Position numbers and translations under genes: made by a program. This document shows positions 13,201-60,764 of a DNA stretch of 64,000 nt, one piece after another; within the stretch, counting starts at the first letter, position 1; the number at the start of each line of letters is the position of its first letter. Under the pieces are notes generated by a model. The model did no database searches, had not been told where the DNA came from, and was given only the letters and a program-made list of their open reading frames with translations. The DNA lies in the IMG/VR virus record IMGVR_UViG_3300045988_151163, positions 10,857-74,856 of that record; one strand, written 5' to 3'. Source of the stretch: a virus.

Positions 13201-16200
13201 AATATCTTTAGCTTCTGAGTATTTTTTACCAGATAAAGTTCTATTCTGATATGATATAATAGGTTCACTAGAAATAATGATATTTTCTTTATTGGCTTCA
13301 ATTTTACCTAAATCTAAAACATATTGTTGATTTAATTGGCCTCTTTGTTCTAGTATTTCATCAGACTCAATTTCTCTGCCGTATGAATAAAGTTTTTGCT
13401 TAAAATTAACAAAGATATTCCAAATATCAACATAATTTTTTTCCACATCATTTCCGCTTACATACTCTGTAATATTCACATAGTATCCACCTAATGTGTC
13501 TAATAACTTTTGATATTCTTCTTCTTGTTTTGCTAATTCAGCCAAATTTTCATTCTCAACTACATTTTTTAATTTAGCAGTAAAATCACTGTAATTAGTT
13601 GTAACTGTTTTATTTTTAATACTTTGATTAAAAGTATTAAAAGCATCAATAGAGCTTTGTAAAACGTTAATGTCTTTTCTAATAATAGTTCTAATGCCAT
13701 TACCATATAAAGTTGAAATTCTAGAGAAAACATCTTCAAATAAAGAAGATATAGATTCAATGTCATTTCCATCATTATATCCAATACCATAAACACTTGT
13801 CTTAGTATTTAAAACAGATATAATAATATTATTTATAATATTTAATTCATTATAAATAAAAGTATCTGCACTCTTAGAGCTGCCTATTTTAATTCCATTA
13901 GAAAGAGTTAACTCACTCATATTAGATTGAGCTGAGACATCTCTATCTAAGTTATTTATTGCGTTAATAATATTTTGTAATGCATCTATACATTCACTTC
14001 TTTTTTGAAGTTCCTCTTTACTCTGTTTAAGTAAGTATTCTATCTGATAAAGGTTACATGCTTTTAAAAATAATTCTAAATTACTATAAATTGAATTGTT
14101 CTTATCTAAAGCTTTTTGTAATTCCTCTTTCTCAGAAGTAATTTTACTTAATTTATCTTTTAATATCTTATTCTCAATATCGACTTTTACTTTAATATAA
14201 TTATAAAAATCTCCAGATTGGAAAAGAGGATTTGGTTTTGCAACAGGACACTCATTATCTTCAGAAACAGATATTTCATGTATAGTCATATTCTTATCTA
14301 AAAAGATATTACTATTTGCACTCCAAGAATAATTACATTCTTTACTATCCACTCCAATCAAATTACTTTCACATCTAAAATTCTCTGTATCATCATATTG
14401 AGGATTATTTCCCGCTGAAGTATATAATACATTATAAAAGCCACCTTCAAGTGATGGAACAAAAGATTTAAAACTTCCATCAGAAGCAAAATCCGTTTGT
14501 GGCTTTTTGATTCTAGTAATTTCAATAGGATAATCATAGTAGATATGTAAATCATTATTATAGATATTATTTAAGTCATCTGTACTTTGATCCGCAGTTG
14601 CTTTTAAATTAGATAATGAAATATTTGCCTGTACGATTATATAAGGGACATTATTTTCATTAGTCCATTGACTTAATTTATTTTTATCACTATTTGTAGG
14701 GATAATATAACAAGAGCTAGCGTCACTATCTGATATAGCGAAAGGACAAAAATATTTGTTTTCTTTCCATCCTAAGCCTTGTTTTTCTCCACTATCAAAG
14801 ATATTCCAAGATACATTAGCTTGACCTGTTTGAGAAGAAGCACTTGTATTTATCTCTTCTCCATCTTTATAGACTTTGACATTTAATCTATATAAATCAC
14901 CTTTAATATGTGAATAGTTATTGTTTGATAAAGAATAACATTTCTTTAAAGTATTACTAACTAAATCATAGATATACCAATCAATAGTACCATCATTATC
15001 TTCTACTGCAACGAAACGCATTTTTACAGGATGCTCATTACCATTATCATCAACATAAATATCTCCATAGCGATATTCCGTATCTCCAATTTTATAGGTA
15101 ACAAAAGCAGTATATTTAGTACCATTAGTTCCATTCTCACCATCTTTTGAGAATCTAATAGGCACATCTTCATATAATACTGTATTACCAAAAATAATGG
15201 TTAAACTTGAAAGACTCTGCGCGGACTTCGCGTTATAGCGGCTAGCAAGCTTGTACTGTAGACTCCTATTAGCGCCATTCCCGCGTATATAATAATAATT
15301 ATCGTCTTTTGTTATAGCAGAAGTATTATCTTGATTTATACTTTCAAAATAAACCAAATTAGGCTTTAATAAACTGTTGATTGGAACTTTCCAAACCCAA
15401 CTAACTCTATCATATTCAGCCTTAGAGATCTCTTCACCGGTGGCCGCGCTTATAATACTAAATTCAACAGGTTTAATCTCCAATTTCTGCAAACTTAAAC
15501 CATCATAATTATCACTATCTGGTGCGTCACCATCTGCATCATAGTTATAATTTACATTAGCATTATCTAAAACGACTAAGAAATCTTGCCCTTCTTTTGT
15601 TCTTATACTGATTTGTTTTGTTTCAATAGGATAAGCAGTAATTGAACCAGACGCTTGCTTCTTATTAGTATAAACGTAGACCTTAAAAATATTCATGTCT
15701 GATGTTAATGAACTTACAGGAAAACTAATTTTAGTAGTATAAATGCCATCAGTAATATTCTTATCGTTTAAAGCTATGATACTATAAAAATCGTCTTGAC
15801 TAATGATTCGACCTTGCTGGTCAATTTGCTCCCATACGTAATTTAACTCTTCATCACGAACTACATTATTATATAAATTAGGATAATTTACTTCACAAGT
15901 TAAAGTTACATTACCTACGTTTTCGAGATAAGTATTATTTTCTTTATCTGCATATAAATTAACTTCTTTAATTAAAGAATATAAATTACTTATGGTTAAC
16001 TCTCCATAGACCCATAATTGACCTTCATTAGTACCAACATAACATCTAATTTTAGATTTGTGTTTAATATCTTGATTTGAGATCGTCACCGAACCCGCTG
16101 TTGTATTAAAAACAAAAGAGCTATCATTCTGTGCTTCACCTAAAACCTCTGTTCTAGAATTTAAACATCTCCAATTCACGCCCGCAGAACGATGATAATA

Positions 16201-17367
16201 CTTACTTGTCTCATTTACTGTTGGATCTTCGATAAACCAATAAACAGGCATTTTAGCATAAGAAGTCTCAAGTCCATTTAGAAATACCTTCAAATTGATT
16301 TTCTTTTCTTCAATAGAGGAAACATCTTGATTAGCAAAAAAAGGTCCATTCTCTGCTGTTAATACAACTTTATATCCGCCTTCAACTGTTTCAATATCTT
16401 CACAAACAGTTAATTGAATATCTTTTAATATAATATCAGCCCAAACATTTTTATCTGTTTTAGCTGGATCTTGCGGGAACCCATCAACAAAAGCAGTAAC
16501 TTTAATGCTTCTCTTTTTATCAAAAACAATTTCGTCTCCAAAATTAAGAACTAAATAATTAGTTTGATTAGACCAATTTGTTAATTCATATGGATTACCA
16601 TTAAAAACCTTAGAATCTAAATAAAATTCTTGAATGTCATCTTTTAAAATTCCATCTGCATTCTTTCTGCGGATTGGGATCTCAACCTTAATTCCATAAG
16701 AACCAGAAATCCTTTGTTCTTTTGCAATAGAGGTTTTAACATTCATATTTAATTTTAAGATATTATATCCACTATCAAAATATCCTTTTAATAAATCAGA
16801 CAAATCATATGGAACAATATCATTTATATCTATAGTTTCATCTTGATAAGATGCAAACTTAATTAAATTATAATTATTAAAAAGATTTTGACTTACTTCA
16901 ATTCTTTTTACTGTTTCTGCTGTTGTTTTATCTTCTCCAACCACTGTAACAGAAGGTGTTACAGAGTTTAAAATAACAAGAGGATTATCAAAATCTCCTC
17001 TTGGAACTAACACTAACACATGGTCACCAACTGAATAACTAGGCGTACTTGCATGCGCTTGCAATTTATCATTTTCTAAATATTTTACTCTATAGGTCGC
17101 GGTTCCTTGGTCCACTATCTCCATGACTTCCATCTCATAAGAAACATCACTTTGAACTGCGGATGCCGCGTTCTCTGACACTGAAGCTACAGCATCATAA
17201 ATTGAATTGGAGATATAGTCTGCTCCCTTATTCAATGAAGTATTGGAAGCTGCTTTAGTAAAATTCTCTTTTACTGTAGAATCAACTTGAAACTTAGTGT
17301 AGTCTGTTGCCAATACTCTTTCCTCCTTTTTCTCTTCTTTATTAGAATATGAAAAATTAAATCTCAT
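10264..17367 (-). CDS. giant tail protein (about 2368 aa): central coiled coil and four C-terminal about 65-aa repeats with G-x-I-(A/G)-(N/G)-W-T-(I/L) motif
   Basis: start placed at ATG 17365-17367 (MRFNFSY), 9 nt downstream of TATAAT of promoter 17377..17405; motifs GHIANWTLD, GHIANWTID, GTIGGWTIS, GQIGGWTIT. Confidence 0.55.
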   Translation of the reverse strand: MRFNFSYSNKEEKKEERVLATDYTKFQVDSTVKENFTKAASNTSLNKGADYISNSIYDAVASVSENAASAVQSDVSYEMEVMEIVDQGTATYRVKYLENDKLQAHASTPSYSVGDHVLVLVPRGDFDNPLVILNSVTPSVTVVGEDKTTAETVKRIEVSQNLFNNYNLIKFASYQDETIDINDIVPYDLSDLLKGYFDSGYNILKLNMNVKTSIAKEQRISGSYGIKVEIPIRRKNADGILKDDIQEFYLDSKVFNGNPYELTNWSNQTNYLVLNFGDEIVFDKKRSIKVTAFVDGFPQDPAKTDKNVWADIILKDIQLTVCEDIETVEGGYKVVLTAENGPFFANQDVSSIEEKKINLKVFLNGLETSYAKMPVYWFIEDPTVNETSKYYHRSAGVNWRCLNSRTEVLGEAQNDSSFVFNTTAGSVTISNQDIKHKSKIRCYVGTNEGQLWVYGELTISNLYSLIKEVNLYADKENNTYLENVGNVTLTCEVNYPNLYNNVVRDEELNYVWEQIDQQGRIISQDDFYSIIALNDKNITDGIYTTKISFPVSSLTSDMNIFKVYVYTNKKQASGSITAYPIETKQISIRTKEGQDFLVVLDNANVNYNYDADGDAPDSDNYDGLSLQKLEIKPVEFSIISAATGEEISKAEYDRVSWVWKVPINSLLKPNLVYFESINQDNTSAITKDDNYYYIRGNGANRSLQYKLASRYNAKSAQSLSSLTIIFGNTVLYEDVPIRFSKDGENGTNGTKYTAFVTYKIGDTEYRYGDIYVDDNGNEHPVKMRFVAVEDNDGTIDWYIYDLVSNTLKKCYSLSNNNYSHIKGDLYRLNVKVYKDGEEINTSASSQTGQANVSWNIFDSGEKQGLGWKENKYFCPFAISDSDASSCYIIPTNSDKNKLSQWTNENNVPYIIVQANISLSNLKATADQSTDDLNNIYNNDLHIYYDYPIEITRIKKPQTDFASDGSFKSFVPSLEGGFYNVLYTSAGNNPQYDDTENFRCESNLIGVDSKECNYSWSANSNIFLDKNMTIHEISVSEDNECPVAKPNPLFQSGDFYNYIKVKVDIENKILKDKLSKITSEKEELQKALDKNNSIYSNLELFLKACNLYQIEYLLKQSKEELQKRSECIDALQNIINAINNLDRDVSAQSNMSELTLSNGIKIGSSKSADTFIYNELNIINNIIISVLNTKTSVYGIGYNDGNDIESISSLFEDVFSRISTLYGNGIRTIIRKDINVLQSSIDAFNTFNQSIKNKTVTTNYSDFTAKLKNVVENENLAELAKQEEEYQKLLDTLGGYYVNITEYVSGNDVEKNYVDIWNIFVNFKQKLYSYGREIESDEILEQRGQLNQQYVLDLGKIEANKENIIISSEPIISYQNRTLSGKKYSEAKDIVQKRYEELTANENDNCSKEIAKIKANKDFTDEEKGKEIAVIRQHYAILTREKTLEKDNILKTLADDVKNTKIKSINSITEKYNTDLLKTYENSYLVPLQYLQEKYSTKTSELNTDIKNKNKEIADLNIGIESSQESVIIIRPINMKCNSYEIPGLNNWDGKKYYLSNNGEYMFCPQIGAGVKTNNNTFTGMFMGARTSVNRSMVSETENDLNLRNKDIGLFGYSQGIQSIFLDAKTGSAFMGMPGQGQIVISPNQAFASIYSGNYYKYDSKRKGYYSKKDGSFISEIDFNNLKTQEERDNYSSGQGMLINLTDGAIKSSYWNVNSEGKSTFTSGVIGGWEIGENTLSSVIKNNAQLVLDSGNSVGLTDANGPENRSPKIYSSDNTRKPHDTLDSMQPGFYLGSDGFSIGNTFKVSIQPSTGLRTQGTGILEVGNLSGAHWIIGQNLKGTSFIGHGASYLISKSFVNQSTDQSENNSSSVYIGTDGLSFGHNLELSAEGSLKIGSFKKNATTSDHFLVLEVDKKDISNASLRYNTDGIHDFKNNSLYVGTQGIRLGKESSKKNNRGVFEVESNGILWATAGHIANWTLDEYQLLSTNTVVIDGVTKPGLVLDSKKGYIAFIKEDFNKTGKGFYLGNEGLSLGDSFWVDRTGELLATKGHIANWTIDKDSIYVKSGDIKIFDIHPMTSGGYISYNTSGWNSSKLLDSTSGCFYLGTTGISLGPNPSPFRVNNLGELWSTRGTIGGWTISNSTLKGGSVTLNSNGSIIGSGWSFSTAGVLTCNDAIIGGVHFKTGSGEANWSGGQMTSGQIGGWTITTSSIYDTASGGGNIKFDTSGDFNILTDGESGIKGTGGDISMKGTTRVTASSGSNKMEITNTSGSLRVGSFGLSINASETSLSGSSKLRLSGGTELYLSSPKAIFNASGENIMIGSSTSLKNYIESVVNTVLKSKTIDFKTNTVYTGETEGHKHTYTKVVSATIS

Positions 17368-17376
17368 TCTTATTCT

Positions 17377-17417
17377 ATTATAACCAAAAATAGCGGAGAG
17401 GTCAAGTCCTCTCCGCA
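17377..17417 (-). promoter_or_regulatory. terminator hairpin after the tape measure protein (GCGGAGAGG/CCTCTCCGC + T-run) whose loop/stem carries the -35 (TTGACC-17-TATAAT) of the giant tail gene promoter
   Basis: read on minus strand. Confidence 0.5.
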
Positions 17418-17426
17418 TAATTTCTG

Positions 17427-20400
17427 TTATTTTCTAATTCCGTTCTTTTGTGCTGCAATATTTTTAAGATTAAGTAAAGCTTGTTCAATTTCTGCCGCAT
17501 TGTTAGCATTAGGGAATTCTGCAACAATGTTATAAACATTATTTTCTTCTTTATTGCTACCTGTTGTTGTTGAAACAGTTTTTCCTTGACCAATTTCATT
17601 AGTCATACTAGAAAGTCTTTCTCCAACTACATCAGAAATAGCATTTTGAATTGAAGAAATAATATTTGGCATACTTCTAACAATTTTTACTGCATCTAAA
17701 ATATTTTCTGTATCAGAAGCATTTAATACAAGTTCTTTTTGATGTAAAATACCAAGTCTACCATTATCACTATCTAAGCCATCTCCTTGAGACATAGGCC
17801 AATTTCCTGTATAACCACCAGTTTTTGCTCTAAAACGATAGCCTTTCTTTTGATCTCTGGTGGAAGCAGCAACTGTATAATTAGTATATTTTCTTTTACC
17901 TTCAAGTGTTTTCGCTCTAGCTATTAGCGTTGCAATTTGCCGACCCGCAGAATCTCTTGATGCATAAGCTGTATCATCTTCAACCATAATATTTCCGTCT
18001 CCACTATTATTAACAATCCAATATTTCATTTTATTATTGGATAAACTAGCAGTGGTTGATGTTGTTCCATCATATCCTCCACCTGAGCTACCGCCGCCTC
18101 CAGAACTACCAGATCCAGAATAACTATAATCTCCATAATTTGTTGCACTACTAAAAGTAGTTTGACTAGCAGTTGCCGCAGCTTGCATCAGAGATAAATA
18201 CTGTTGAATATTGTTAATAGCATCTTTGATAGATTGAACCACACCCTCCCAAGCAGTTTTAACTTGATCAACACTATTTCTTAAATTCTCTAATTGAGAA
18301 CTACTATCTGAAGCAAGTTCAGCAGTCTTATTCTTCAAATTATCTGTCTCATCTTCTGCTCCTCTAATCGCGCCTGATATACCATCTGGTCCAAAATCTT
18401 GTCCAGCTTTATCGGCAGTGTCTGAAACTTGTTCTTCATATTTTTGAGTTGCTTCAATTAACTTATCATTTGCATCTGTAACCATAGCTTTCACGCTAGA
18501 GCCATCATCGCCAGCCCATTTCTCAATCATTTGATCTGCGGCTGCATCCCAGATACCTTTACCTTCAACAAGAGAAGATTCAATACTATCTACAATACCG
18601 TTCATATTATCTCTAACAGCATCATATATGCTATTAAAATCACTGATATTGTTATCTGTAGCTTCTTTAATTAATCTCTGCTGTTCTGATGTCATAGATG
18701 CATAAGCTTCTTCATCTTGCTTGTAGATCTCAAGAGTCAAACCTAATTGAGCTTCTTGCAATCCAGACTTCGCGGTTGCCGCCTCACTGGCATATCCCAT
18801 CGACATTTCTTGGTACCATTTATCCAGATCTGCCATCTCTTGACTGTCCGCGCCGTATTTTTCAAGATACTCTTTTTTCTTAGATAAGTATTCTTGATCT
18901 AATTTTAATAAGTTTTCAATATTAGATTGATATGCTGTTTTAGATAACTCATAAAGTTCTTTATAAGAATCTAATAACGCTTGACGCTTACTAGCAACGT
19001 CGTCTTCATCTGCAACATATTGATAAGTCCAGTTACCTTCTTGATTTCTAGTAACTTTCATTGTATTTTTACTATTTTGAGCATCTTCTAAAGCAATTTC
19101 TTTTTGAAGAATATCAAATCTAGCATTTGCTGCATCAATATCATATTGAGTTAATTGTTTCTTTTCTCTTAAAGCTTTAAGCTCTTTTTCTTGGAACTCT
19201 AACAATTTCTGTTTAGCTTTTACACTCTTGGTGTCTGTAATAGCTTGATCGACATTAGCTTTAAAAATTTCTGTATTATAAGCTTTTTCTGTTGCATCCA
19301 TATACAAGTCTGCGGATTCTTTTAATCTATCCCATTGATCTTGCATATAGTCAAGTGTTGTTCCACCAGTTATTTTTTTCTCAAGAGTATCAATAGTAGA
19401 AGAAATAGTGTTTTGATATTGGTCTTTAATAAGATTTATTCTATCAAGTACTGCGTCATTTAAGTCTTGTTCACAATCACGCATCTTTTCATATGCTTCT
19501 TGATAAGCTTCACTTTCTTCTCCATAAGATTGTTTCGCGGCTTCAGCTTGTTCTGCCCAGAACTCCTTCTGCTGTCTCAAAGATTCGATTTGAGCGCCGC
19601 TATTATTGATTTGAGCAGAATATAATTGGTCCATCATATCATATGCTTCTTCTCCATAGATTAACTCTATAAGTTCAGCTTGATATTCAAGATTGTCATT
19701 TATTCTATCAAATTCATCCATTAAGTCTTCAAACTTATCTGCAGCTTGATCAATACCATCCATATAAGCATCCCAAGCATCTTGGAACAAATCTTTCATA
19801 TCTTTAGCATGATCCATCAAATCGCTTTGAAGTTCTTTAAGTCTGTCTTGAGCCTGAGAAATTGTTTCAAACATACCAGAATAACCCGTAGTATGTAAAT
19901 TCATAATTTCTCTTTCAACTACTCCTATAGCAGCTAGATCCGCGGCAATCGTACCATTATCACCTTGATATGTACTAAATGAAGCTACTATGTTTTTGCT
20001 CTTTTTACCAAGATCTTCATATACCTTAGTGAAATCTTCTTCCATTTCCGCCAAGAAGTCTTGCATATCTCTTTCAGCTTCAGAAAAATCAAGTTTAATT
20101 TTATAATCTTCTTCAAATATAGCTAAAGTATTTTCTCTTTGTTTCTTTTCTTCTTCTGCAATCGCATCAGCGACATCTTTCATTTCATCATATAATAAAG
20201 TATCATATCTTTCAATTTGTTTCTTAAAATCTTCATATTTTTGTTTGGCTATATCCATACCAGCTTCATCTAAAGAGCCTGCATTATATGCACTAACAGC
20301 TGCATTATAAGCATTTATTTGAGCTTGATATGCTGCTTCATAGTTAGTGATCTCACCAGTATCTTTAAATGCAACTCCAAAAGATTTAAGTCTGCCTTGT

Positions 20401-23400
20401 ACTTCTTGTGCTTCTTGAATTTGAAGTTTTTGTTTTTCCTTTTGTTTATCAATCTGTTGGTCTAATAATTTATTCTCTTCTTGTAAACTTTCAATAAGCT
20501 GTTTTCCGGACATTGTGCTTTGCTTATCTTCAAGTTTATCAAGTTCATCATTAATAGCTTCAAGAGCTTTATTAACAGACCAATATCTATCTACTTTGTC
20601 GTCAGTAAATTCTTCTTCTTTTTTAGAAGAAGAGCTTCCTCCGCCTCCACCTTTAGATGCGCCTGCTGACATACTCTTACCAAGATTTGCTCTAACATTG
20701 CCAATAGCAGCAAGTTTAGTAGATAAACTTTGCATAACAACTTTAGCTGCATCTTTATGCTTAAAGATACCATCTAATCCTGGAATTTCAGCTAATTGAT
20801 TAGCTAAATTAGCTGCATCAACTGTAGCACTTTGCATTTGCATAGCTAAATTATATACAGCTGTTTGTGCAGCACTCATTTTTTGCGCGCTGGAAGTAGC
20901 TGCATTTCCAGTTAATTCTTCTGCTAAAGCCAAATCATCATTAGCCAATCTTGCTAATTGAGACATAGCTTCATCAACAGCTTTAACCTCTGCTAAATCT
21001 AATTGCGCATTTGCCAATGTTTCTAATTGGCTTTGATTCATAGACATTTGTCCATTTTGAATCTGTAAAGCAGCTAAATACTGGTCATCCATATTTAGAA
21101 GAGTATTAAGATTATCAATAGTTAAGAATCCATTTTCATTATATGAATCCATTATGCTATTAAGAGAATTATATGCACCTTGAATGCTACTTAATTCTCC
21201 TGTGATATCACTCATTTCTTCTTTAGCTTTTTCATGCACAGCAGTCCAAACTTCTACTTGATCAACATTGTCTTCAGTAGAATTGTTTAAATCATTTTGT
21301 GCTTTATTTAAACCGTTTGAAACATTAGTTAAGTCTTCTCCTTCATCAATAGCATCTTTCCATGCTTTAATTTGATCTTTATTAACACCTATTGTTTCTG
21401 AAACAATATCTATTGCATTTTTTTCTTCATCTGTTAAACTATCAAATCCATCTTCTTTTAATTTTTCTATTGCTGAAGTAGCTTTTTCAATATCATCAAC
21501 ATTTAAAAAAGAATCTAATCCAGGAAAACTTTCTATTTCTTCTTTTATGTTTCCAAGGGCACCTTCTAATGTTTTAAAATTTTCTATTGCAGTTGAATAA
21601 GTTTTGTCAACAGAGCCAGAGTAATCTACAGAAGAACCTTCTCCCCTTTTGATAGTACCTTCTTGGGTTTTTTCATAGCCAGTATAGCTATAACTCGTCA
21701 TTCCTTCAACTTGACTTTGAGTAGTTAATGATTCATTATTAGCTTTAGCTTCTGCATTAACTCTATCTTCAATAGCTTGAGTTAACTCTTTTTCTTTTTC
21801 TATTCTTATATCATAAAAAATTTTTAATTGAGCAATTTGTTCTGATGAATCTAATTTTTCAAAATCTTCTTGAGTGCCAAAATAATCTTGAATACCTTGA
21901 TCGGCGAATAAACTATCAATTTGTTCTTGAGTTAACTCGCCATCTTCTAAATTCTCAAGAACGCCACCCGCAACAGTAGCAGAACTTCTAACCTCGGCTA
22001 GTACAGAAAAATCACCTAAACCATCTATTTGTTTCTGAAGATTTTCTCCTGCATCTTCTGGTAAAACTAAATCAATATTATCAAGAATAGCTTTTGCATC
22101 TGAATCAGATATGCTTGCCATTATATCTTGAACAGTTTTTTCTGCATATCCTTTTTCTATCAATGCTCTAGATGCTTCATATTTAGAAGAATATTGTAAT
22201 AAAGCATCATTTCTAGCTGTCAAATATGTAATGGCATACTGTCTTGCATCTTCTATAGCTTTTTTATTTTCTTCTTTGCTGTAATCTTCTCCTTCGACGC
22301 CTTCTTCTTTTTTCCACCCATAAGTTGATCTTGTTTTTTCTACAATAGCAGAAATACCTTTTTGATAATCTGTATATGAAACATCTTTAGAACCTAAATT
22401 CTTATTATTAAAAACTTCATTTGCAGAATTTTCTCTTTCTGCTGTTTTTCCTTTTGTCTCTGCGTCTTCCCAATTCGTAATAGCAGTTGAAATGGTTTCT
22501 GAATTTAACAATTCTGAAATTTGCTTAGAAGCCATTGAAGGATTTTCATTCAGAATTTTTACTAATTCTGCATTATTTTCTGTTGCAACTTTAGTTAAAC
22601 TTTCTACAGTAATATGATTACTATCAGTAAATCTGATACCTAATTTATCTAATTCTTGAGCCAATTTCTTTTCGCTATCATTTCTACTCATCATACCTTG
22701 TAGATCTAAAGTATCTTGACCTTGACCAACTCTATCAATTCTAGCACCAGCTTCTTTAACTATATTGGCACTAATAGAAGCAGTCTGTTTTTCTTTTTCT
22801 TCAGAAGTAGCTTCTTGTATATCTACATTGCTATCAGTTTGAACTTGCTTTATAATATTATCTAATTCTTCATAATCCGCGGTAAGCGCTTGTACTGCCG
22901 CACTCTGAATACCGTGTTGCTGACAAAGTAAATAAACTTGTTGTCTAAAAGCTTCTAAGTTATTTTTCTTATATTGCTCTTTTAATGATTCGTAACTAGA
23001 AACTAATTCATTAACAGATTCTTTTTGTTCTTCCGTTGCTAATGTAACTTCATGAGCTGCATTTGCTGCATTTTCTGCTGCCTTTGCATCTTCTTCAACT
23101 GCTTTTTTGTGAGCTTTGTAAAGTGCAATACCTCCAATTACTGCTGCGGTTACGAGAGCCATAGCTCCACTAACTATGCCTATAGCAAGTCCTAAAGAAT
23201 GTGTTGCTGCTTGATTTTTAATTTTTTCTATTGTATTTAATTTTGTTACAGCAGTATTAGCTGTTGTAGCTACTGTTGCTTTTGCTTCAATTCTTGCAGA
23301 TAAACTTAAAACCGCATTTTTTACTTTTTCAGCTGCTGTTTCAGCCAAAGTTGCAATTCTATTTGATTCTTTTACAGCAATAAAAGTCTCATAAACGCTA

Positions 23401-26087
23401 ATCAATGAAGGAATTATCATGGCTAATGACATAAAAGATTGTTCCACTTTTTCTGTTAAAGTTAAATCATCATTTGAAAAAATATTTCCTAAATTTCTAA
23501 TTTGATTTATTGCCATTGCTAATTGACCAAGAGAACCTACAACCTGTCCAATTTGTTGCATCGTGGTTTTTTGATTAAAAGCTTTAACCAATTCTTCTCG
23601 AAAAGAAATCAATCCTTTTTCAGTTTTTTGAATTTGCCCTTGCATTTGTTCAAGACCAGCTAAGTTTCCAGCTTGTGTTCTTGCTTCTTTAAAAACATTT
23701 TCTAGTACATCATCAAGAGCTTTTCCTTGTCGTGCTGCTTCTTTAGCTCTTTCTGCTAAATTATTAAAAAAATTATCAACCTCTGCTTGAGGTAAATCTA
23801 ATTCTTGAATATTAGATATAAAATCTTTATCTTGTTTTATTTTAGAAATTTTAGCGTCAATAGCTGATTCTTTAGCTTGAGTATCTAATTCTTTAAAATC
23901 TTCTTTTAAAGCTTTTAAATCAATAGTGGTAATTTTATCATCAACTTCTTTAATTATAGTTGAAATTTGAGACCACTTATCTTTAAAAGCATCTCCTGAT
24001 TTCATAATTTCTTTAATACTTGGTAATACTCGTTCATCAGTTTTTATTAAATTGCTCATTGCATCTTCTATCTGATTATTTCCAAAAGCATCAGTAGTCA
24101 TTGAAGTGCCGAGATTTTCACCCTCTATTGTATTAGCTATTTTTAAAAAGGTGTTTATTTTTTCTAAATCTTTAGATCTTCTTTCAGTAGAAGCTTCTAA
24201 TGATGTATCTATATCTAATAAACCTATTAAATTATTTTTTTGTTTAGTAATAGCTTCAACTTGTTCACTATATTTAACAGTCATTTCAGCTTGAGCAACA
24301 ATTTTTTTATTTAATAAATTTATTTGTTTTTCGTCTTCTGCTGTTAAGTATTTATTATTTTCAATTAAATATTGATTATTAGCTTTTAATTGAGCAGTAG
24401 CATCTGCAACGGCTTTCCCGCCCATGCTTTCTGGATTTTGAATATATGCATTTTGAGCAATTTCATTAAATTGATCTAAAGCAGGCATAGAATTCTTTAA
24501 TGCTTCTAAATTAGTTCTTGTATCTTTAATATTATTTGCAATATTAAGAATACTTTCACTAATTTTCCCACTAAAAGTCTTCAGCATTAAAGGAGCAACA
24601 AAAGACAGTATACCCTTTAAACCACCTGCTGTTTTAACAAAATTATCTACAACTTCTAATAACTTAGTAGCATCTTCAGTTAAGTCTTTAATACCTTCTG
24701 TATCAAATAAATCTTGATAAATTGTTTCAGCAGTTGCTCTTAATATTTCAAGCTTTTTATTTAAAGACTCCAAAGCAATATCTTGCTGTTCTTGCAACGT
24801 ACCAGCAGCATTTTGAGATACAGCTAGAGTATCTTGATACATACTCCAGTTATTAAATAATGCAGTTAAATTATTATACTGTCTTTTACCTGCCATAGCT
24901 ACTGCAATAGCTTGACGCTGAGCTTCCGTCCATCCTTGCCATTTCTCAGCAACCTCTTCCATTACAGTACCCATTTCTCTTAAGTTGCCTGTTTCATCCA
25001 GAACTCTAATACCAACAGACTCAAGAGTACCGGATACTTCACCAAGAGTAGTACCAAATTCATCAACGCCATCAACTTGTAAGTCGCCCATACGAGCATA
25101 AATTGTTTTAAGAGCAGTACCAACAGATTCTGGTGCTTGTCTTGTTACAGAAACAATAGTAGCAACTTGGGCAGATAACTGATCAATATTAACACCCATC
25201 ATAGACGCGGATGACGCTACTTTAGACATAGCTGTAGCCAGCTCTTCCAGATCTGATGCAGTTGCCGCACCTACTGCCGCCAACTTATCTACATATTCTT
25301 CATATATACCGAAGCCCTTTTCTGCGGCTTCGTTTGCTACGTTGTAACCATTCCATACAGCTGTGAGTTGCTCAGACACTTCCGCCATAGATTGACCTGT
25401 TACATTAGCTGTCTTTGCAGTAATATCAGTTAAAGCTTTAACTGTATCATCATCAAGACCCTGTTGGTAATAAATCAAAGCTCCTTCAGTGTAATCTCTT
25501 GTTGAAACAGCAAGCGCTTTTGCGGCTTCATTCGCGTCTTTTGAGAAATCTCTCATTTGATCAGCCGACTGTCCAGTTACAATTCTAATATCATTTAAAG
25601 CAGTATCAAGATTTTTAATATAACCATAAGCTTGTTGAGTGCTACTAAGCATTTGATTCCATAAACCAGAGCTCAATCCCCACTTAACAGTATTTTTCAT
25701 GGTTTGAGCCATTTCGTCAACTAGTTTATTAGTTCTTTTAACTACACTACCCATCTGAGTAAATGTATTGGTTAAATTTAAGAAAGCTTTTTGACCTGAA
25801 GTCCCTGCATTTAATAAATTTTTGCTTATTGTTTGAATATCAGTACCATTTTGTTTTAATACTTTATTAAACTTTTCAAAATTAACTGTATTGATATTTG
25901 GATTATAAGCCTTTTCAAGTGCAAGTTCAATTTGATCTATGGATTTTAATATTTCTGAAGTATCCATATTTAATGGATGTTCAAAAACAGTAAATTCTTT
26001 TCTAACTTCATTTAAACTTTGCTTTAATTCATTAACACCTTTTAAATCTGCTATTGTCCGCAGTTTAAAATCTATTGTGTTAGCCAT
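17427..26087 (-). CDS. tail tape measure protein (2886 aa)
   Basis: very long, mostly helical/coiled-coil ORF with Gly/Ser linkers (GGGGGSSSSKKEEE, GSGSSGGGGSSGGG) directly upstream of tail tip genes; AAGGAGG SD. Confidence 0.8.
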   Translation of the reverse strand: MANTIDFKLRTIADLKGVNELKQSLNEVRKEFTVFEHPLNMDTSEILKSIDQIELALEKAYNPNINTVNFEKFNKVLKQNGTDIQTISKNLLNAGTSGQKAFLNLTNTFTQMGSVVKRTNKLVDEMAQTMKNTVKWGLSSGLWNQMLSSTQQAYGYIKNLDTALNDIRIVTGQSADQMRDFSKDANEAAKALAVSTRDYTEGALIYYQQGLDDDTVKALTDITAKTANVTGQSMAEVSEQLTAVWNGYNVANEAAEKGFGIYEEYVDKLAAVGAATASDLEELATAMSKVASSASMMGVNIDQLSAQVATIVSVTRQAPESVGTALKTIYARMGDLQVDGVDEFGTTLGEVSGTLESVGIRVLDETGNLREMGTVMEEVAEKWQGWTEAQRQAIAVAMAGKRQYNNLTALFNNWSMYQDTLAVSQNAAGTLQEQQDIALESLNKKLEILRATAETIYQDLFDTEGIKDLTEDATKLLEVVDNFVKTAGGLKGILSFVAPLMLKTFSGKISESILNIANNIKDTRTNLEALKNSMPALDQFNEIAQNAYIQNPESMGGKAVADATAQLKANNQYLIENNKYLTAEDEKQINLLNKKIVAQAEMTVKYSEQVEAITKQKNNLIGLLDIDTSLEASTERRSKDLEKINTFLKIANTIEGENLGTSMTTDAFGNNQIEDAMSNLIKTDERVLPSIKEIMKSGDAFKDKWSQISTIIKEVDDKITTIDLKALKEDFKELDTQAKESAIDAKISKIKQDKDFISNIQELDLPQAEVDNFFNNLAERAKEAARQGKALDDVLENVFKEARTQAGNLAGLEQMQGQIQKTEKGLISFREELVKAFNQKTTMQQIGQVVGSLGQLAMAINQIRNLGNIFSNDDLTLTEKVEQSFMSLAMIIPSLISVYETFIAVKESNRIATLAETAAEKVKNAVLSLSARIEAKATVATTANTAVTKLNTIEKIKNQAATHSLGLAIGIVSGAMALVTAAVIGGIALYKAHKKAVEEDAKAAENAANAAHEVTLATEEQKESVNELVSSYESLKEQYKKNNLEAFRQQVYLLCQQHGIQSAAVQALTADYEELDNIIKQVQTDSNVDIQEATSEEKEKQTASISANIVKEAGARIDRVGQGQDTLDLQGMMSRNDSEKKLAQELDKLGIRFTDSNHITVESLTKVATENNAELVKILNENPSMASKQISELLNSETISTAITNWEDAETKGKTAERENSANEVFNNKNLGSKDVSYTDYQKGISAIVEKTRSTYGWKKEEGVEGEDYSKEENKKAIEDARQYAITYLTARNDALLQYSSKYEASRALIEKGYAEKTVQDIMASISDSDAKAILDNIDLVLPEDAGENLQKQIDGLGDFSVLAEVRSSATVAGGVLENLEDGELTQEQIDSLFADQGIQDYFGTQEDFEKLDSSEQIAQLKIFYDIRIEKEKELTQAIEDRVNAEAKANNESLTTQSQVEGMTSYSYTGYEKTQEGTIKRGEGSSVDYSGSVDKTYSTAIENFKTLEGALGNIKEEIESFPGLDSFLNVDDIEKATSAIEKLKEDGFDSLTDEEKNAIDIVSETIGVNKDQIKAWKDAIDEGEDLTNVSNGLNKAQNDLNNSTEDNVDQVEVWTAVHEKAKEEMSDITGELSSIQGAYNSLNSIMDSYNENGFLTIDNLNTLLNMDDQYLAALQIQNGQMSMNQSQLETLANAQLDLAEVKAVDEAMSQLARLANDDLALAEELTGNAATSSAQKMSAAQTAVYNLAMQMQSATVDAANLANQLAEIPGLDGIFKHKDAAKVVMQSLSTKLAAIGNVRANLGKSMSAGASKGGGGGSSSSKKEEEFTDDKVDRYWSVNKALEAINDELDKLEDKQSTMSGKQLIESLQEENKLLDQQIDKQKEKQKLQIQEAQEVQGRLKSFGVAFKDTGEITNYEAAYQAQINAYNAAVSAYNAGSLDEAGMDIAKQKYEDFKKQIERYDTLLYDEMKDVADAIAEEEKKQRENTLAIFEEDYKIKLDFSEAERDMQDFLAEMEEDFTKVYEDLGKKSKNIVASFSTYQGDNGTIAADLAAIGVVEREIMNLHTTGYSGMFETISQAQDRLKELQSDLMDHAKDMKDLFQDAWDAYMDGIDQAADKFEDLMDEFDRINDNLEYQAELIELIYGEEAYDMMDQLYSAQINNSGAQIESLRQQKEFWAEQAEAAKQSYGEESEAYQEAYEKMRDCEQDLNDAVLDRINLIKDQYQNTISSTIDTLEKKITGGTTLDYMQDQWDRLKESADLYMDATEKAYNTEIFKANVDQAITDTKSVKAKQKLLEFQEKELKALREKKQLTQYDIDAANARFDILQKEIALEDAQNSKNTMKVTRNQEGNWTYQYVADEDDVASKRQALLDSYKELYELSKTAYQSNIENLLKLDQEYLSKKKEYLEKYGADSQEMADLDKWYQEMSMGYASEAATAKSGLQEAQLGLTLEIYKQDEEAYASMTSEQQRLIKEATDNNISDFNSIYDAVRDNMNGIVDSIESSLVEGKGIWDAAADQMIEKWAGDDGSSVKAMVTDANDKLIEATQKYEEQVSDTADKAGQDFGPDGISGAIRGAEDETDNLKNKTAELASDSSSQLENLRNSVDQVKTAWEGVVQSIKDAINNIQQYLSLMQAAATASQTTFSSATNYGDYSYSGSGSSGGGGSSGGGYDGTTSTTASLSNNKMKYWIVNNSGDGNIMVEDDTAYASRDSAGRQIATLIARAKTLEGKRKYTNYTVAASTRDQKKGYRFRAKTGGYTGNWPMSQGDGLDSDNGRLGILHQKELVLNASDTENILDAVKIVRSMPNIISSIQNAISDVVGERLSSMTNEIGQGKTVSTTTGSNKEENNVYNIVAEFPNANNAAEIEQALLNLKNIAAQKNGIRK

Positions 26088-43250: not shown

Positions 43251-44129
43251 ATGCCAGCACATGATGATTTAGGAACTAGAATGAAAACTTTCTATGAAAA
43301 CGCATCTAAAACTTACCTTATGCACAGATGTCCTGTTGCCATTAGGCTAGATGGCCGCGCTTTCCATACTTTTACAAAAGGATTTCAGAAACCTTTTGAT
43401 GAAATATTGATGAAGTCAATGCAAAAAACTATGCAGTATCTTTGTAAGAATATCCAAGGATGCGTTTTTGGATATACTCAGTCAGATGAGATTACTCTTA
43501 TATTAGTAGATTATAAAAATTTAACCAGCACTGCGTGGTTTGATTATGACGTACAGAAAGTATGTAGTATTGCTGCAAGTATGGCTACGATGATATTTAA
43601 CAAGTATTTTTATGATAATGTATTTATGTACAATGCGACTGCTGCTGTTGATTTATCCAATAAAAAATATCCATTTAAAGAAGTATATTCTAAAGCAGTA
43701 AATAAAGGTGCAATGTTTGACGCAAGATGCTTTAATATACCAAAAGAAGAAGTAGCTAATTTAATTTATTGGCGGCAGTTGGATGCTATACGGAATTCAG
43801 TCCAGGCAACCGGACAAGCAAACTTTAGCCATAAAGAGCTACAAGGCAAATCTTGCGCAGACATAAAAGAAATGCTTAAAGAAAAAGGCGTTGATTGGAA
43901 TAGTCTTCCTTTAGAGTTTCAAAGAGGCTCTTGTTGTGTAAGAAATGCTGTTGCCATAAAAAAAGAACAAGTTATTTTCCCTAGTGGGAAAAAGATGATT
44001 AGATCTATTATAGAACTTAGAGATACATCCAAGCCAGAAAAAGCTTGGATTATAGATAAAGAAATCCCTATATTTAAAGGAAAAGATAGAAAGTATATTG
44101 AAGATTTAATTTTTATTGAGGAGGAATAA
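43251..44129 (+). CDS. Thg1-like protein (tRNA-His guanylyltransferase family 3'-5' nucleotidyltransferase)
   Basis: VAIRLDGRAFHTFTKGFQKPFDE and GYTQSDEITLIL match Thg1 catalytic palm motifs (compare human VVVRLDGRNFHRF...AKPND and AYGQSDEYSFVF); WRQLD matches the Thg1 WRQ.D. Confidence 0.8.
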   Translation: MPAHDDLGTRMKTFYENASKTYLMHRCPVAIRLDGRAFHTFTKGFQKPFDEILMKSMQKTMQYLCKNIQGCVFGYTQSDEITLILVDYKNLTSTAWFDYDVQKVCSIAASMATMIFNKYFYDNVFMYNATAAVDLSNKKYPFKEVYSKAVNKGAMFDARCFNIPKEEVANLIYWRQLDAIRNSVQATGQANFSHKELQGKSCADIKEMLKEKGVDWNSLPLEFQRGSCCVRNAVAIKKEQVIFPSGKKMIRSIIELRDTSKPEKAWIIDKEIPIFKGKDRKYIEDLIFIEEE

Positions 44130-49066: not shown

Positions 49067-49113
49067 TTATCCACAATTTACTATCCCGAAATTGTGGATA
49101 ACTTTGTGGATAA
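49067..49113. promoter_or_regulatory. three consensus DnaA boxes (TTATCCACA at 49067..49075; TGTGGATAA at 49094..49102 and 49105..49113), two forming a hairpin with TCCCGAA loop
   Basis: exact match to TTATNCACA consensus, 3 copies in 47 bp. Confidence 0.5.
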
Positions 49114-49119
49114 CTCCTA

Positions 49120-49148
49120 TTGACAAATAGGATTCTATGCGGTATAAT
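49120..49148 (+). promoter_or_regulatory. early promoter (gene 49183)
   Basis: TTGACA-17-TATAAT. Confidence 0.55.
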
Positions 49149-52930: not shown

Positions 52931-53002
52931 AGGCGTGTGGCTCAATGGAAAAGCAACGGTCTCCAAAACCGCGATTTACAGGTTCAAATCCTGTCGCGCC
53001 TG
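52931..53002 (+). tRNA. tRNA-Trp (CCA)
   Basis: acceptor AGGCGTG/CGCGCCT, anticodon arm CGGT-CTCCAAA-ACCG, T arm ACAGG-TTCAAAT-CCTGT; GGTCTCCAAAACC is typical of tRNA-Trp. Confidence 0.75.
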
Positions 53003-53036
53003 CTAATACAGTAAAAGATTGTTACCTCCTTTCCTT

Positions 53037-57495: not shown

Positions 57496-57813
57496 CTATT
57501 TATTACCAGACTTAGCATATTCATTCCAACTCCAATTCCTTACCTGCTCTCTAAACACCCTATCAGCTTCATTACTAACACCTTCATATTTCGCTGTAAC
57601 AATAGCCCTATCAACACTTGCACCATACTTTATACAAAAACTATATAAATCCTCATCCCTAACAATCTCACCATTCCTATCTCTAATCCCTATACCATTA
57701 TTCTTTAACCAATAAAAAACAGCTAAACCCGCCGGCACATCGCCATCATATGCCTTCCTCAACTGCATCTTTATACCATCAATATCCTTAGCAACAATCT
57801 CTGTATTAAACAT
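57496..57813 (-). CDS. hypothetical protein (105 aa)
   Basis: ORF with GAGGAGAAATAG SD; higher GC than surroundings. Confidence 0.45.
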   Translation of the reverse strand: MFNTEIVAKDIDGIKMQLRKAYDGDVPAGLAVFYWLKNNGIGIRDRNGEIVRDEDLYSFCIKYGASVDRAIVTAKYEGVSNEADRVFREQVRNWSWNEYAKSGNK

Positions 57814-57972
57814 AACTATTTCTCCTCTCTAATATAAAACAATAGTAAAAGGGAGCTCGAGGCAGAGCCTCGAATTTTCAGATCATTTTTCAAAACTAAT
57901 GTCTGTATACGCGGCATTGCCCCAGACCCCTTTTAACCCAGCCCTAAAATCTTCCACCGAACCGCCGCGGTC

Positions 57973-58638
57973 TCATAATGCTACCCGCACATCATCAATA
58001 TCTAATATATAAATATTATATGGATTATATATTAACTTAGGTCTCACACAAGCAATTATAAAATCCATATTATTGTACCCCTCTTCAATATATACTTCTC
58101 CAAACCTATACCCTCTAATATTCTCATTACCTAATTGAAAAATTTTTATAAAAGATCCATCTGTTGTTACAATAACATCTTCTGAATAATATTCTACATC
58201 TAAGTTACTAACTAACTCTTCTCTCACTATATCCATATTTTCTTTACTAATACATCCTATACCAATATTCCTGCTTAATAAACTATCTCTAAAATAATAT
58301 TCAGGCATCAATATACTTTTCTTTAACTTATCATCATTACTATAATCTAACTTATAAACAGCTTTTTGTGCAACAGGATATTTTTTATTACTACGCTTAA
58401 TCATTCTAAGCTGTTTTCTATTCTCACACCCAACTTCAACAAAACTAGCATCAAAGAGTCCATCCATACAATTAAACCCAACATCTAAAAAGAACCAACA
58501 ATCATTATTCTTAAATACTATCATAGTATTGCTTTTTGCATCAACGACATCTTTATCTAACAAATCATATACCCTATTACACACATCTTTTACATCATCT
58601 TTGTTACACCAAAAGGCATAATTCTTTCCAATATCCAT
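57973..58638 (-). CDS. hypothetical protein (221 aa), paralog of 58642..58989
   Basis: N-terminal about 100 aa shared (NYAFWC...DVC.RVYD.L...V.A.KSNTMIVF...DCW.FLD...DASFVE.G). Confidence 0.45.
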   Translation of the reverse strand: MDIGKNYAFWCNKDDVKDVCNRVYDLLDKDVVDAKSNTMIVFKNNDCWFFLDVGFNCMDGLFDASFVEVGCENRKQLRMIKRSNKKYPVAQKAVYKLDYSNDDKLKKSILMPEYYFRDSLLSRNIGIGCISKENMDIVREELVSNLDVEYYSEDVIVTTDGSFIKIFQLGNENIRGYRFGEVYIEEGYNNMDFIIACVRPKLIYNPYNIYILDIDDVRVAL

Positions 58639-58641
58639 CTA

Positions 58642-58989
58642 TTATTCATTCTCCTCCATAACATACTTTTGTGGATTATAAATAGTGCTTCTTTCAATAT
58701 TATCCAAATCTAATATATAAATATCTTCAGGGTCTTTATTAGTATTCTTAATCATTTCAATCTTCTCTTTATCTTTATACCCTGCTTCAACAAAACTAGC
58801 ATCAAAAAAGTTTTTTATACGCAGTAGACTATCCATGTTTAAATCTAAAAAAGACCAACAATCACCATAAGTAAAAACTATCATAGTATTAGTTTTTAAA
58901 GCAATAACATTTTTTCTCAGTGCATCATATACTTTATTGCACATATCTTCTGCACTAATTCCATCACACCAAAAACCATAATTATCCAT
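58642..58989 (-). CDS. hypothetical protein (115 aa), short paralog
   Basis: as above; AAAGGAGAGAAAAG SD. Confidence 0.45.
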   Translation of the reverse strand: MDNYGFWCDGISAEDMCNKVYDALRKNVIALKTNTMIVFTYGDCWSFLDLNMDSLLRIKNFFDASFVEAGYKDKEKIEMIKNTNKDPEDIYILDLDNIERSTIYNPQKYVMEENE

Positions 58990-59185
58990 TCTTTTCTCTC
59001 CTTTTAATTATAAATATAGGGACAAGGTTTTAATCTCTTTACACCGGCCCCTCTTTCAACATTACATCACTACGCCGCGCCTAAAGGTATAAATAATCTT
59101 GGAGTAGTGAGCGAAGCGAACTACGTAAAGATTATTTATACCGTCTATTTATTTATTTAGTATTTATTCTCTATTTATATATTAG

Positions 59186-59341
59186 AGTGCCGATTAAGCA
59201 CTTTTCCTTAGAAAAAAGTGCCAATTAAGCACTTTCTGCTCATTAAAAAGTGCTTATTAAGCACTTTTTCTTGTATATAAAAGTGCCGATTAAGCACTTT
59301 TTAATAGACTCCTTGTATCTAAAAAGTGCCATTTTAGCACT
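59186..59341. promoter_or_regulatory. array of five evenly spaced (31-43 bp) palindromes AAAAGTGCC-N7-GCACTTTT (59186, 59217, 59249, 59282, 59325): operator/centromere-like
   Basis: five near-identical inverted repeats between minus-strand operons. Confidence 0.6.
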
Positions 59342-59346
59342 TTTAT

Positions 59347-59634
59347 TTAACCGTCCGCGTAGAACACATCATCCCTAATAAAATTTGCTGCAACTAATTC
59401 TTGGTATCCAATAGTTGAAACCTTCTTAGCTTTATCTAAAGTTATCCCCAGTTCATTACTGATAGCCTGCGGGCTTATCTTCCACTTAGTACCATTCTTA
59501 AATTTACACAAATATAACCACAATAATAATCCATTATTATTAAGACTAGCTGCTGCCTTCAAACCTTTATTTGAAATTTGAAAAAATTCTCCCGGCTCAT
59601 ACTTAACTGGTCTATCTGTGGTTACAGCTTTCAT
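59347..59634 (-). CDS. HTH/winged-helix DNA-binding protein (95 aa)
   Basis: ISPQAISNELGITLDKAKKV helix-turn-helix-like; flanks operator array 59186..59341. Confidence 0.4.
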   Translation of the reverse strand: MKAVTTDRPVKYEPGEFFQISNKGLKAAASLNNNGLLLWLYLCKFKNGTKWKISPQAISNELGITLDKAKKVSTIGYQELVAANFIRDDVFYADG

Positions 59635-59635
59635 T

Positions 59636-59818
59636 TTAATTACCCCCTAATATTTTATCAAGAGCTTTATTAAAATTATCTGTAACTTCATATATCCAGC
59701 ACTTCAATCCAGATCTATATATATTATCTTTCTCTAATAGAGGCTCAAAACCCATATCCCTTAAAAGCATCCTTACTCTTAAAGAATAAATAGTTTTATA
59801 TTTGGTTCTTATTGGCAC
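59636..59818 (-). CDS. hypothetical 60-aa basic protein
   Basis: ORF, overlaps neighbour start/stop. Confidence 0.35.
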   Translation of the reverse strand: MPIRTKYKTIYSLRVRMLLRDMGFEPLLEKDNIYRSGLKCWIYEVTDNFNKALDKILGGN

Positions 59819-59823
59819 TTAAA

Positions 59824-59988
59824 TCACTCCTTGTTTACATATTCAATAGTATAATCTGCATTTTGCCCTCTGCCAACCTTAGTCAATTTAATACCTTGCT
59901 TTTCTAAAGTTCTAACAGTGCGCGGAAACGCCTCTCGTAGAGTCGACTCACTCAGCCTTAATCGCTGACATGTTTCTTGAAGATTCAA
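59824..59988 (-). CDS. small HTH regulator (54 aa, Xre/excisionase-like), TTG start
   Basis: not in ORF track; GAAAGGAGG SD 8 nt before TTG; LRLSESTLREAFPRTVRTLEKQGI is a classic HTH. Confidence 0.4.
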   Translation of the reverse strand: MNLQETCQRLRLSESTLREAFPRTVRTLEKQGIKLTKVGRGQNADYTIEYVNKE

Positions 59989-60105
59989 TTCCGTAATCCT
60001 CCTTTCTCTTTTATTATACTATATTTGTAAACAATTACAAACAAATTATCGGCTTTTGCCCAACACATAGTTTAGAATTTTGTCCAAATTCTATAAATAA
60101 TGAAA

Positions 60106-60735: not shown

Positions 60736-60764
60736 ATTATAACAAACTTATTTTTGTTTGTCAA
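60736..60764 (-). promoter_or_regulatory. minus-strand promoter for 60635..59347 operon, divergent from plus promoter 60791..60819
   Basis: rc TTGACA-17-TATAAT; plus: TTGAAA-17-TGATATAAT. Confidence 0.5.

Follow-up and report, generated by a model that had tools for sequence, protein, structure and literature searches.

The window, by which we mean the whole 64-kb stretch of viral DNA that was analysed, carries on its minus strand a compact module in which three small genes are followed by an array of palindromes, an A-rich block, a long hairpin and a G+C-rich patch (Table 1). Reading along that strand, the stop codon of the 59347..59634 ORF is followed by two bases and then, in turn, by the palindromes, the A-rich block, the hairpin and the patch. 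The pattern AAGTGC-N7-GCACTT, with at most one mismatch, is matched five times here (at 59185, 59216, 59248, 59281 and 59324) and nowhere else in the 64 kb, the chance expectation being a mean of 0.15 matches; none of 100 dinucleotide-preserving shuffles of the window reached five. A preliminary description of this DNA had reported five near-identical inverted repeats spaced 31-43 bp apart, and both statements hold, the start-to-start distances being 31, 32, 33 and 43 bp. The span it gave, 59186-59341, is correctly placed but slightly short, as the 23-bp units together occupy 59183-59344. The third copy is a perfect 12+1+12 palindrome, AAAAAGTGCTTA-T-TAAGCACTTTTT.

Table 1. Features of the module and of the promoters ahead of it, in minus-strand order (window coordinates).
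Feature	Position	Strand	Sequence or remarks
Early-operon promoter	60736..60764	-	perfect consensus TTGACA-17-TG-n-TATAAT; head of the leftward operon entering the module
Second promoter-like site	~60013..60041	-	TTGTAA-16-TATAAT; overlapped by the palindrome TTTGTAA-ACAA-TTACAAA (60024-60041)
Small HTH gene	59824..59988	-	module gene 1; 54 aa; weak MerR/HTH_17 matches (E 0.01-0.1)
Middle gene	59636..59818	-	60 aa; motifs YSLR..LR..GFEP..GLKCW; beside the winged-helix gene in all lineages
Winged-helix gene	59347..59634	-	95 aa; no Pfam or PHROG family
Iteron 5	59322..59344		AAAAGTGCCATTTTAGCACTTTT; closest to the winged-helix gene; ends 2 nt short of its stop codon
Iteron 4	59279..59301		AAAAGTGCCGATTAAGCACTTTT
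Iteron 3	59246..59268		AAAAGTGCTTATTAAGCACTTTT; perfect palindrome
Iteron 2	59214..59236		AAAAGTGCCAATTAAGCACTTTC
Iteron 1	59183..59205		adjoins the A-rich block; degenerate distal half (AGAGTGC...)
A-rich block	59143..59183	-	41 bp; 12% G+C; A-rich on the gene-sense strand; four ATAAATA repeats
Long hairpin/cruciform	59086..59142		57 nt; 15-bp outer arms, 5-bp inner stem, GCGAAGC tip
G+C-rich patch	59023..59085		GGCGCGGCG ... GGGGCCGG; end of the block conserved among close relatives

In the sequences scanned, the array is confined to this phage and its kin. It had been suggested that the palindrome be sought elsewhere, and while the remainder of the window contains none, palindrome arrays are kept in all eight lineages described below. 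Scanning viral contigs for AAAGTGC-N7-GCACTTT returned more than 119 loci, nearly all of them single chance matches, and a clustered array was found only in the window phage's own relatives. Two unrelated high-GC phage contigs (L082, 1619-7614, and L072) carry three to five scattered longer palindromes that fit AAGTGC-N7-GCACTT (e.g., AAGTGCGACSGTCGCACTT), which are probably operators or terminators of a different system. The likeness of TGCTTAA, within the iterons, to a MotA box was put down to coincidence. Neither the array nor the A-rich block (59020-59345) was found to contain a sigma-70-like or other promoter-like site, so the earlier wording that the array lies at the promoterless end of an operon was accurate.

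The A-rich block belongs to the 0.06% least stable 40-bp stretches of the window and has the fourth-lowest duplex stability among non-overlapping 40-bp segments of the whole 64 kb; judged by its sequence, it is a candidate DNA-unwinding element. It also contains a -10-like TATAAA at a distance of 15 nt from the middle of iteron 1. The perfect inverted repeat of 15 bp noticed beforehand just beyond the array is real and turns out to be the outer part of a longer hairpin: its arms lie at 59086-59100 and 59128-59142, the DNA fold has an energy of -14.9 kcal/mol (z = -8.1), and the GCGAAGC tip, at 59111-59117, is on the plus strand, which is the T-rich strand of the A-rich block. Mini-hairpins of the GCGAAGC type are unusually stable and are found at the G4 origin and in ssiA of RSF1010 (PMC13037366). 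Lineage L122 also has a long hairpin past its A-rich block, with the same loop, TCGCTTCGCTC, and different arm sequences. We considered whether GCGAAGC might be a dispersed motif of this phage, such as a hairpin promoter, and rejected the idea, two copies in 64 kb being the chance level; a scan for AATAAATAG-N(8-36)-TCGCTTCGCTC found only the window phage's relatives and three unrelated loci. In several relatives (L001, 5619-5629; L002, L129, L130, L132 and L135) a second short hairpin, with the reverse-complement loop GAGCGAAGCGA, lies about 100 bp beyond the first, at a position that in the window (beyond 59023) is the upstream region of a 115-aa gene; the two opposed hairpins resemble the ssiA and ssiB pair of RSF1010. 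Separately, the 231-kb contig of a jumbo phage (L139, IMGVR_UViG_2595698668_000001) ends about 50 bp from ATAAATAAATAG, which is followed by the 15-mer GTTCGCTTCGCTCAC, the same as in the window hairpin; any array in that phage would fall past the contig end.

The 95-aa and 54-aa ORFs are as they had been described, with a 60-aa ORF, unmentioned at the time, between them. The 95-aa protein had no match in Pfam, PHROGs or PDB sequences, none by tblastn against isolate phages and plasmids, and none in a scan of genome contigs; Foldseek against PDB and BFVD returned nothing, nor did blastn of the locus against phages. A word-indexed search of 5.8 billion proteins recovered only the protein's own cluster, an exhaustive HMMER search of 1.84 billion representatives added four small relatives (P0002, P0003, P0004 and P0006; 39-54% identity), and a profile search a further three (P0013-P0015). 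The family amounts to eight 90%-identity clusters among 5.8 billion proteins, the seven other lineages being 36-54% identical to the window protein. One of five family members has a sub-threshold HTH_36 match (E = 0.027). AF2 run on the single sequence was unusable (pLDDT 46), and a usable model came only from a 5-sequence alignment; the predicted fold is closest to plasmid Rep initiators and is not ParB-like. In most relatives the protein finishes in an acidic C-terminal tail with a hydrophobic GF motif at its tip; the window protein has no such tail. P0002 seems to have a C-terminal extension, but only because its gene call decodes TGA as Trp and so runs on across the iterons. Two giant proteins of the representative library, P0005 (2910 aa) and P0007 (2486 aa), each contain five or six matches to the N-terminal ~36 residues of the winged-helix protein.

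Both adjacent HTH proteins had been put forward as binders of the array. We favour the 95-aa winged-helix protein, which is a candidate for palindrome binder and origin initiator alike; the 54-aa protein, going by the sequences compared, is probably not the binder, since in relatives it is replaced by an RHH or HTH_36 protein with the array unchanged. Its slot is occupied by an RHH protein (PF01402) in L123, L125, L140 and L142 and by a 193-aa HTH_36 protein in L134 (7538-8119; E 5e-8), the C-terminal part of which looks by eye like a GIY-YIG nuclease (GIVKYVGST...). The 54-aa protein probably regulates the promoter of its own operon, and the palindrome over the second promoter-like site bears no relation to the iteron sequence and is probably the operator of this first gene. 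Neither operon promoter, at 60764 or 60040, carries AAGTGC half-sites. The 60-aa window protein has no match to DUF5659 (PF18903) at E <= 1; for the homologues in L140 and L141 a precomputed match, though weak, exists, and we refer to it as DUF5659-like and regard it as a candidate partner or adaptor. Two minus-strand ORFs downstream of the module (57973-58989), of 115 and 221 aa, resemble each other in their N-terminal halves and are paralogues; neither matches a family, and their absence from L001 and L002 marks this as a variable cargo slot.

All seven other lineages (L122, L123, L124, L125, L140, L142 and L143) are represented by contigs that we recovered, and the same layout is found in every one. 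In all eight a small RHH gene, or an HTH gene in the case of the window, comes first, then the 60-aa homologue and then the winged-helix gene; the array of 4-13 palindromes begins 0-3 nt from the winged-helix stop codon or overlaps it. Right past the last iteron comes an A-rich block, 36-49 bp long, in which A makes up 53-62% of the sense strand and the G+C content is 9-16%; it contains ATAAATA repeats and an invariant AATAAATA. In every lineage the last iteron has a degenerate distal half leading into (T)A(A)TATATA. The half-site sequence differs between lineages in step with the protein: AAGTGC in the window, L124, L142 and L143, AAGTGT in L122, AGTAT in L140, AGTAT or AGTGT in L123, and GGTGCC in L125. 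Counted outward from the gene, the spacings are 43, 33, 32 and 31 bp in the window; 54, 33 and 32 bp in L124; 44, 33 and 32 bp in L142 and L143; 32, 32, 32, 28, 22 and 21 bp in L122; 29, 28, 35, 33, 33 and 21 bp in L125; and 21, 36, 28, 35, 33, 21 and 21 bp in L140. Most are multiples of ~10.7 bp (21, 32-33, 43-44, 54), which would place the sites on one face of the helix; the clear exception is L123, where most spacings are 37 bp and thus off helical phase. Beyond the A-rich block, L123 (1316-1426) and L140 (3537-3641) have a second class of repeat, (A/T)GGGG(T/C/G)(A/G)T plus A/T runs every 18-23 bp, which may represent additional binding sites.

Constraint at shorter range was read from an alignment of nine phages, 85-98% identical to the window, across the gene, the array and the hairpin. 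Variable columns numbered 14/288 in the winged-helix gene, 17/103 in the array outside the 6-bp cores and 10/63 in the distal patch, and there were none in the iteron cores (0/60), the A-rich block (0/41) or the hairpin (0/57). The cores differ from the rest of the array (Fisher p = 3e-4), and block and hairpin together (0/98) differ both from the array outside the cores (p = 8e-6) and from the winged-helix gene (p = 0.025). A recombination junction with the variable downstream genes lies at ~59023, past which genes are exchanged, the two paralogues of the window among them. Amid mosaic surroundings and swapped downstream genes, the cassette is thus kept as a unit. In L134 (8714-8738) and L131 (1488-1512) the spacer between iterons 2 and 3 (window 59229-59253) is inverted, which suggests recombination or template switching between palindromic iterons.

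The window represents about half of a large siphophage, with portal and terminase genes and a 2886-aa tape measure, and human gut metagenomes have yielded near-identical contigs of 122-143 kb. TerL is closest (44%) to those of Enterococcus Schiekvirus-like phages, Geobacillus E3, gut phage Phass-1 and SPbeta-like phages. The giant ORFs had hinted at a crAss-like or N4-like identity, which we discarded, as the 2886-aa ORF is the tape measure and TerL groups with large Firmicute siphophages. The two giant ORFs lie at 10264-26087 (minus strand); the tape measure (PF10145) implies a very long tail, and its 2384-aa neighbour has no Pfam match. Between 44700 and 56800 (and also at 60764 and 60791) there are about 40 perfect or near-perfect TTGACA-N17-TG-n-TATAAT promoters, mostly on the plus strand and each ahead of a very small ORF, in what looks like a dense early or host-takeover region; AAATA often stands past the -10 element in this set, ATAATAAATA occurring 13 times against 1.9 expected. 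The window also encodes a Thg1-like tRNA-His guanylyltransferase (43251-44129; PF04446, E 3e-29) and a tRNA-Trp (CCA) gene (52931-53003). Three perfect DnaA boxes, TTATCCACA, lie within 47 bp (49067-49113; at 49067 on the plus strand and at 49093 and 49105 on the minus strand) directly upstream of a consensus promoter (TTGACA at 49120) and are kept in relative L126 (19896-19942); this cluster could serve as an origin that depends on DnaA, as a promoter regulated by it or as a DnaA sink. Within ~10 kb of the array no gene has a Pfam match to ParA, ParM, TubZ, an integrase, a helicase or a primase, no polymerase gene was recognised there, and almost no gene in that stretch matches anything or is annotated. 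GC skew tracks the direction of transcription and carries no information on the origin.

We conclude, with a probability of a little over one half (about 0.55), that 59023-60041 is a self-contained replication-origin cassette of the iteron type with a new minimal initiator, belonging to a large (~122-143 kb) Firmicute gut siphophage. Of the readings offered in the preliminary description, this is the one we favour, because the same arrangement recurs in eight of eight lineages, the half-sites change with the protein, and the predicted fold is Rep-like. Multiple copies of one site are clustered at a single locus, an AT-rich element adjoins them (the 41-bp block, with an equivalent past the last iteron in all eight lineages), and the putative initiator gene is linked to the sites and co-evolves with them in every lineage, the last point being an association. 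Origins of this kind are well known; the protein family is unclassified, very rare and built of one small domain.

The mechanism we propose follows from the linked winged-helix gene, the phased dyad-symmetric sites, the strand-biased AT-rich block and the stable hairpin. Dimers of the 95-aa protein would bind the five palindromes, in each of which two GTGC cores lie about one helical turn apart, and with sites 31-43 bp (three or four turns) from one another the dimers would sit on one face of the DNA and could form a wrapped complex like the lambda O-some. Strain from such a complex would open the adjoining A-rich block with its ATAAATA repeats; Rep proteins are known to bind repeated motifs in a single-stranded DUE (PMC4980987). 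The hairpin, with its very stable GCGAAGC tip on the T-rich strand, might then extrude and signal entry or priming to a helicase or primase whose gene lies elsewhere; the conserved 60-aa protein is a candidate adaptor. The first small HTH or RHH protein would probably act on the operon's own promoter only, and transcription through the region from the early promoters may help origin activation, as in lambda.

Several known systems resemble the locus in part. The AT-rich tract of lambda ori is strand-biased and is followed by a palindrome, which is a likeness to the window locus, and in both an AT-rich tract of ~40 bp adjoins several iterons in the form of imperfect inverted repeats, to each of which a winged-helix N-terminal domain presumably binds as a dimer. 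The lambda origin comprises four 19-bp imperfect inverted-repeat iterons and an AT-rich tract, in a region that is, as here, transcribed from an early promoter (PMC7466680). In contrast to lambda, the origin here would lie just past the gene rather than within it, the host is a Firmicute, and the 95-aa protein is without a C-terminal P-binding-type domain and matches no Phage_rep_O, DnaD or replisome organiser profile in Pfam or PHROG. Initiators of the Rep_3 family, such as pi (R6K), RepA (pPS10) and RepE (F), have two winged-helix domains in tandem (WH1 and WH2) and bind direct repeats as monomers, whereas the window protein has a single domain, palindromic sites and no Pfam Rep_3 match. The oriV of the IncQ plasmid RSF1010 is laid out as iterons, a GC-rich/AT-rich segment and ssi hairpins, and the order is shared down to hairpin single-strand initiation signals with a GNA-type mini-hairpin tip; the loops of the two hairpins in some close relatives are opposed, like those of ssiA and ssiB. 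In ssiA this tip is CCGAAGG (PMC13037366). The RSF1010 proteins (RepC, RepA and RepB') are nevertheless unrelated, and no dedicated primase gene is seen near the window locus. Origins of SaPIs lie directly downstream of the rep ORF and consist of iterons and an AT-rich region, and they share with the window locus this position past the initiator ORF, with 6-12 iterons read by a winged-helix domain beside the AT-rich region (PMC9371898). The SaPI Rep, however, is a large self-loading helicase whose short 5-6 nt iterons flank the AT-rich region on both sides, whereas here a tiny protein without an ATPase would face palindromes of 19-23 bp on one side only.

Alternatively, one could envision the palindromes as an operator array for a winged-helix regulator, the last site covering the -35 and spacer of a weak promoter that has a -10 element only and lies where the A-rich block begins; the phased upstream sites would cooperatively repress or activate the variable downstream genes (58989..57496) or block read-through from the early promoters. 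This explanation we consider unlikely, though more probable than the other alternatives. In six lineages (the window, L124, L142, L143, L140 and L123) a -10-like hexamer (TATAAA, TACAAT, TATATA or TATAAT) is found at a distance of exactly 15 nt from the middle of the last iteron, weak promoter-like matches (9-10/12) run over the last iteron in L123, L124, L125 and L142, the invariant AAT-AAATA of the block resembles the -10 element plus AAATA of the phage's own early promoters, and the downstream genes are co-directional and without a consensus promoter of their own. Yet no -35 element is conserved, the window, L122 and L143 show no promoter-like match on the sense strand, as many as 13 sites is far above the number in known phage operators, and the strand-biased block of 36-49 bp reaches well past the -10 element. 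The array occurs at one place in 64 kb, so that such a regulator would control only the genes behind its own, and these are swapped in close relatives while array, block and hairpin stay invariant; the fold, too, is closest to Rep initiators. A lysis-lysogeny switch, which the preliminary description had also raised, is unsupported, as there is no promoter over the sites, no integrase or CI/Cro-like pair nearby, and only the one set of sites in 64 kb; the operators do not overlie divergent or tandem regulator promoters in the CI/Cro manner, although the -10-like hexamer may mark a single weak promoter.

The centromere that had been suggested is a distinctly less probable alternative. The winged-helix protein of a plasmid-like prophage would here coat a sopC- or parC-like array downstream of its own gene, and a phased inverted-repeat array right past the binder's gene does recall F sopC after sopB; in sopC and P1 parS alike the repeats follow directly on that gene, with an inverted repeat in each. 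The acidic tail with its hydrophobic GF end, found in most relatives, could contact a motor protein, and several lineages have an RHH gene in first place. However, the window protein has no tail, its fold is not ParB-like, and no ParA-type partner is near: a ParA/CbiA, ParM/actin-like or TubZ/tubulin-like NTPase was flagged neither among the ~40 called genes within ~10 kb nor in L125, L134 or L140. A conserved A-rich block and hairpin would moreover have no role in known centromeres. We give very little credence to a site for recombination, packaging (pac- or cos-like), recombinase action or another DNA transaction, for which one might cite the inverted spacer in L134 and L131 and the mosaic junctions that bound the cassette; the palindromes themselves explain the inversion, the terminase genes are 20 kb off, no recombinase is nearby, and the contig ends of four assemblies do not match the site. 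Scarcely any weight falls on an RNA-level element, in which palindromes and hairpin would form stem-loops in the transcript, near the operon's 3' end, and serve as terminators, attenuators or processing sites. The RNA does fold far better than shuffles (z = -7.2), and one palindrome was flagged as terminator-like on the plus strand, but that is the non-transcribed strand. No U-tract stands behind the sense-strand hairpins, the long hairpin being followed only by UUUAGG; in the sense RNA, A would be mismatched with C in 10 of the 13 L123 units (AGTAT...ACACT), and A/G degeneracy at one half-site position fits recognition by a protein instead. The hairpin loop is found in both orientations among close relatives, and no Rfam family reached threshold, with only sub-threshold hairpin noise.

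Some observations also count against the origin reading. The candidate initiator consists of one domain of 95 aa in which no helicase-recruiting part can be recognised, and its window version is missing the acidic tail. The dearth of a recognised helicase, primase or polymerase within ~10 kb and the off-phase spacing of L123 weigh in the same direction, the -10-like hexamer in six lineages fits a regulated promoter too, and the same phage has another candidate origin in the DnaA-box cluster (49067-49113).

A more far-reaching version of the origin reading, which we put forward as speculative and would be surprised to see borne out in full, is that the cassette is a portable minimal replicon: an RHH/HTH regulator, a DUF5659-like adaptor, a single-domain winged-helix initiator of ~95 aa, palindromic iterons, an ATAAATA unwinding element and a GCGAAGC priming signal. 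Were this true, the protein would be the smallest origin-binding initiator described, DUF5659 would gain its first function, and large Firmicute phages would be passing the cassette among themselves as a unit. In the literature searched we found no description of a triad of RHH, DUF5659-like and winged-helix genes with co-varying palindromes.

The replication origins of large gut-Firmicute phages are essentially unmapped, and most genes of this phage are unannotated. Should the array instead belong to a promoter, it would be part of an unusual multi-site regulatory cassette controlling swappable downstream genes. If the locus is an origin, as we favour, a rare orphan family and its DUF5659-like partner would gain a testable function, and a further case would be added of a GCGAAGC mini-hairpin beside an unwinding element. 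The origin reading would also provide a compact initiator-origin pair with five natural specificity variants, in which palindrome reading by a single winged helix and the opening of DNA could be studied, and possibly a small replicon for vectors in gut Firmicutes that are hard to engineer.
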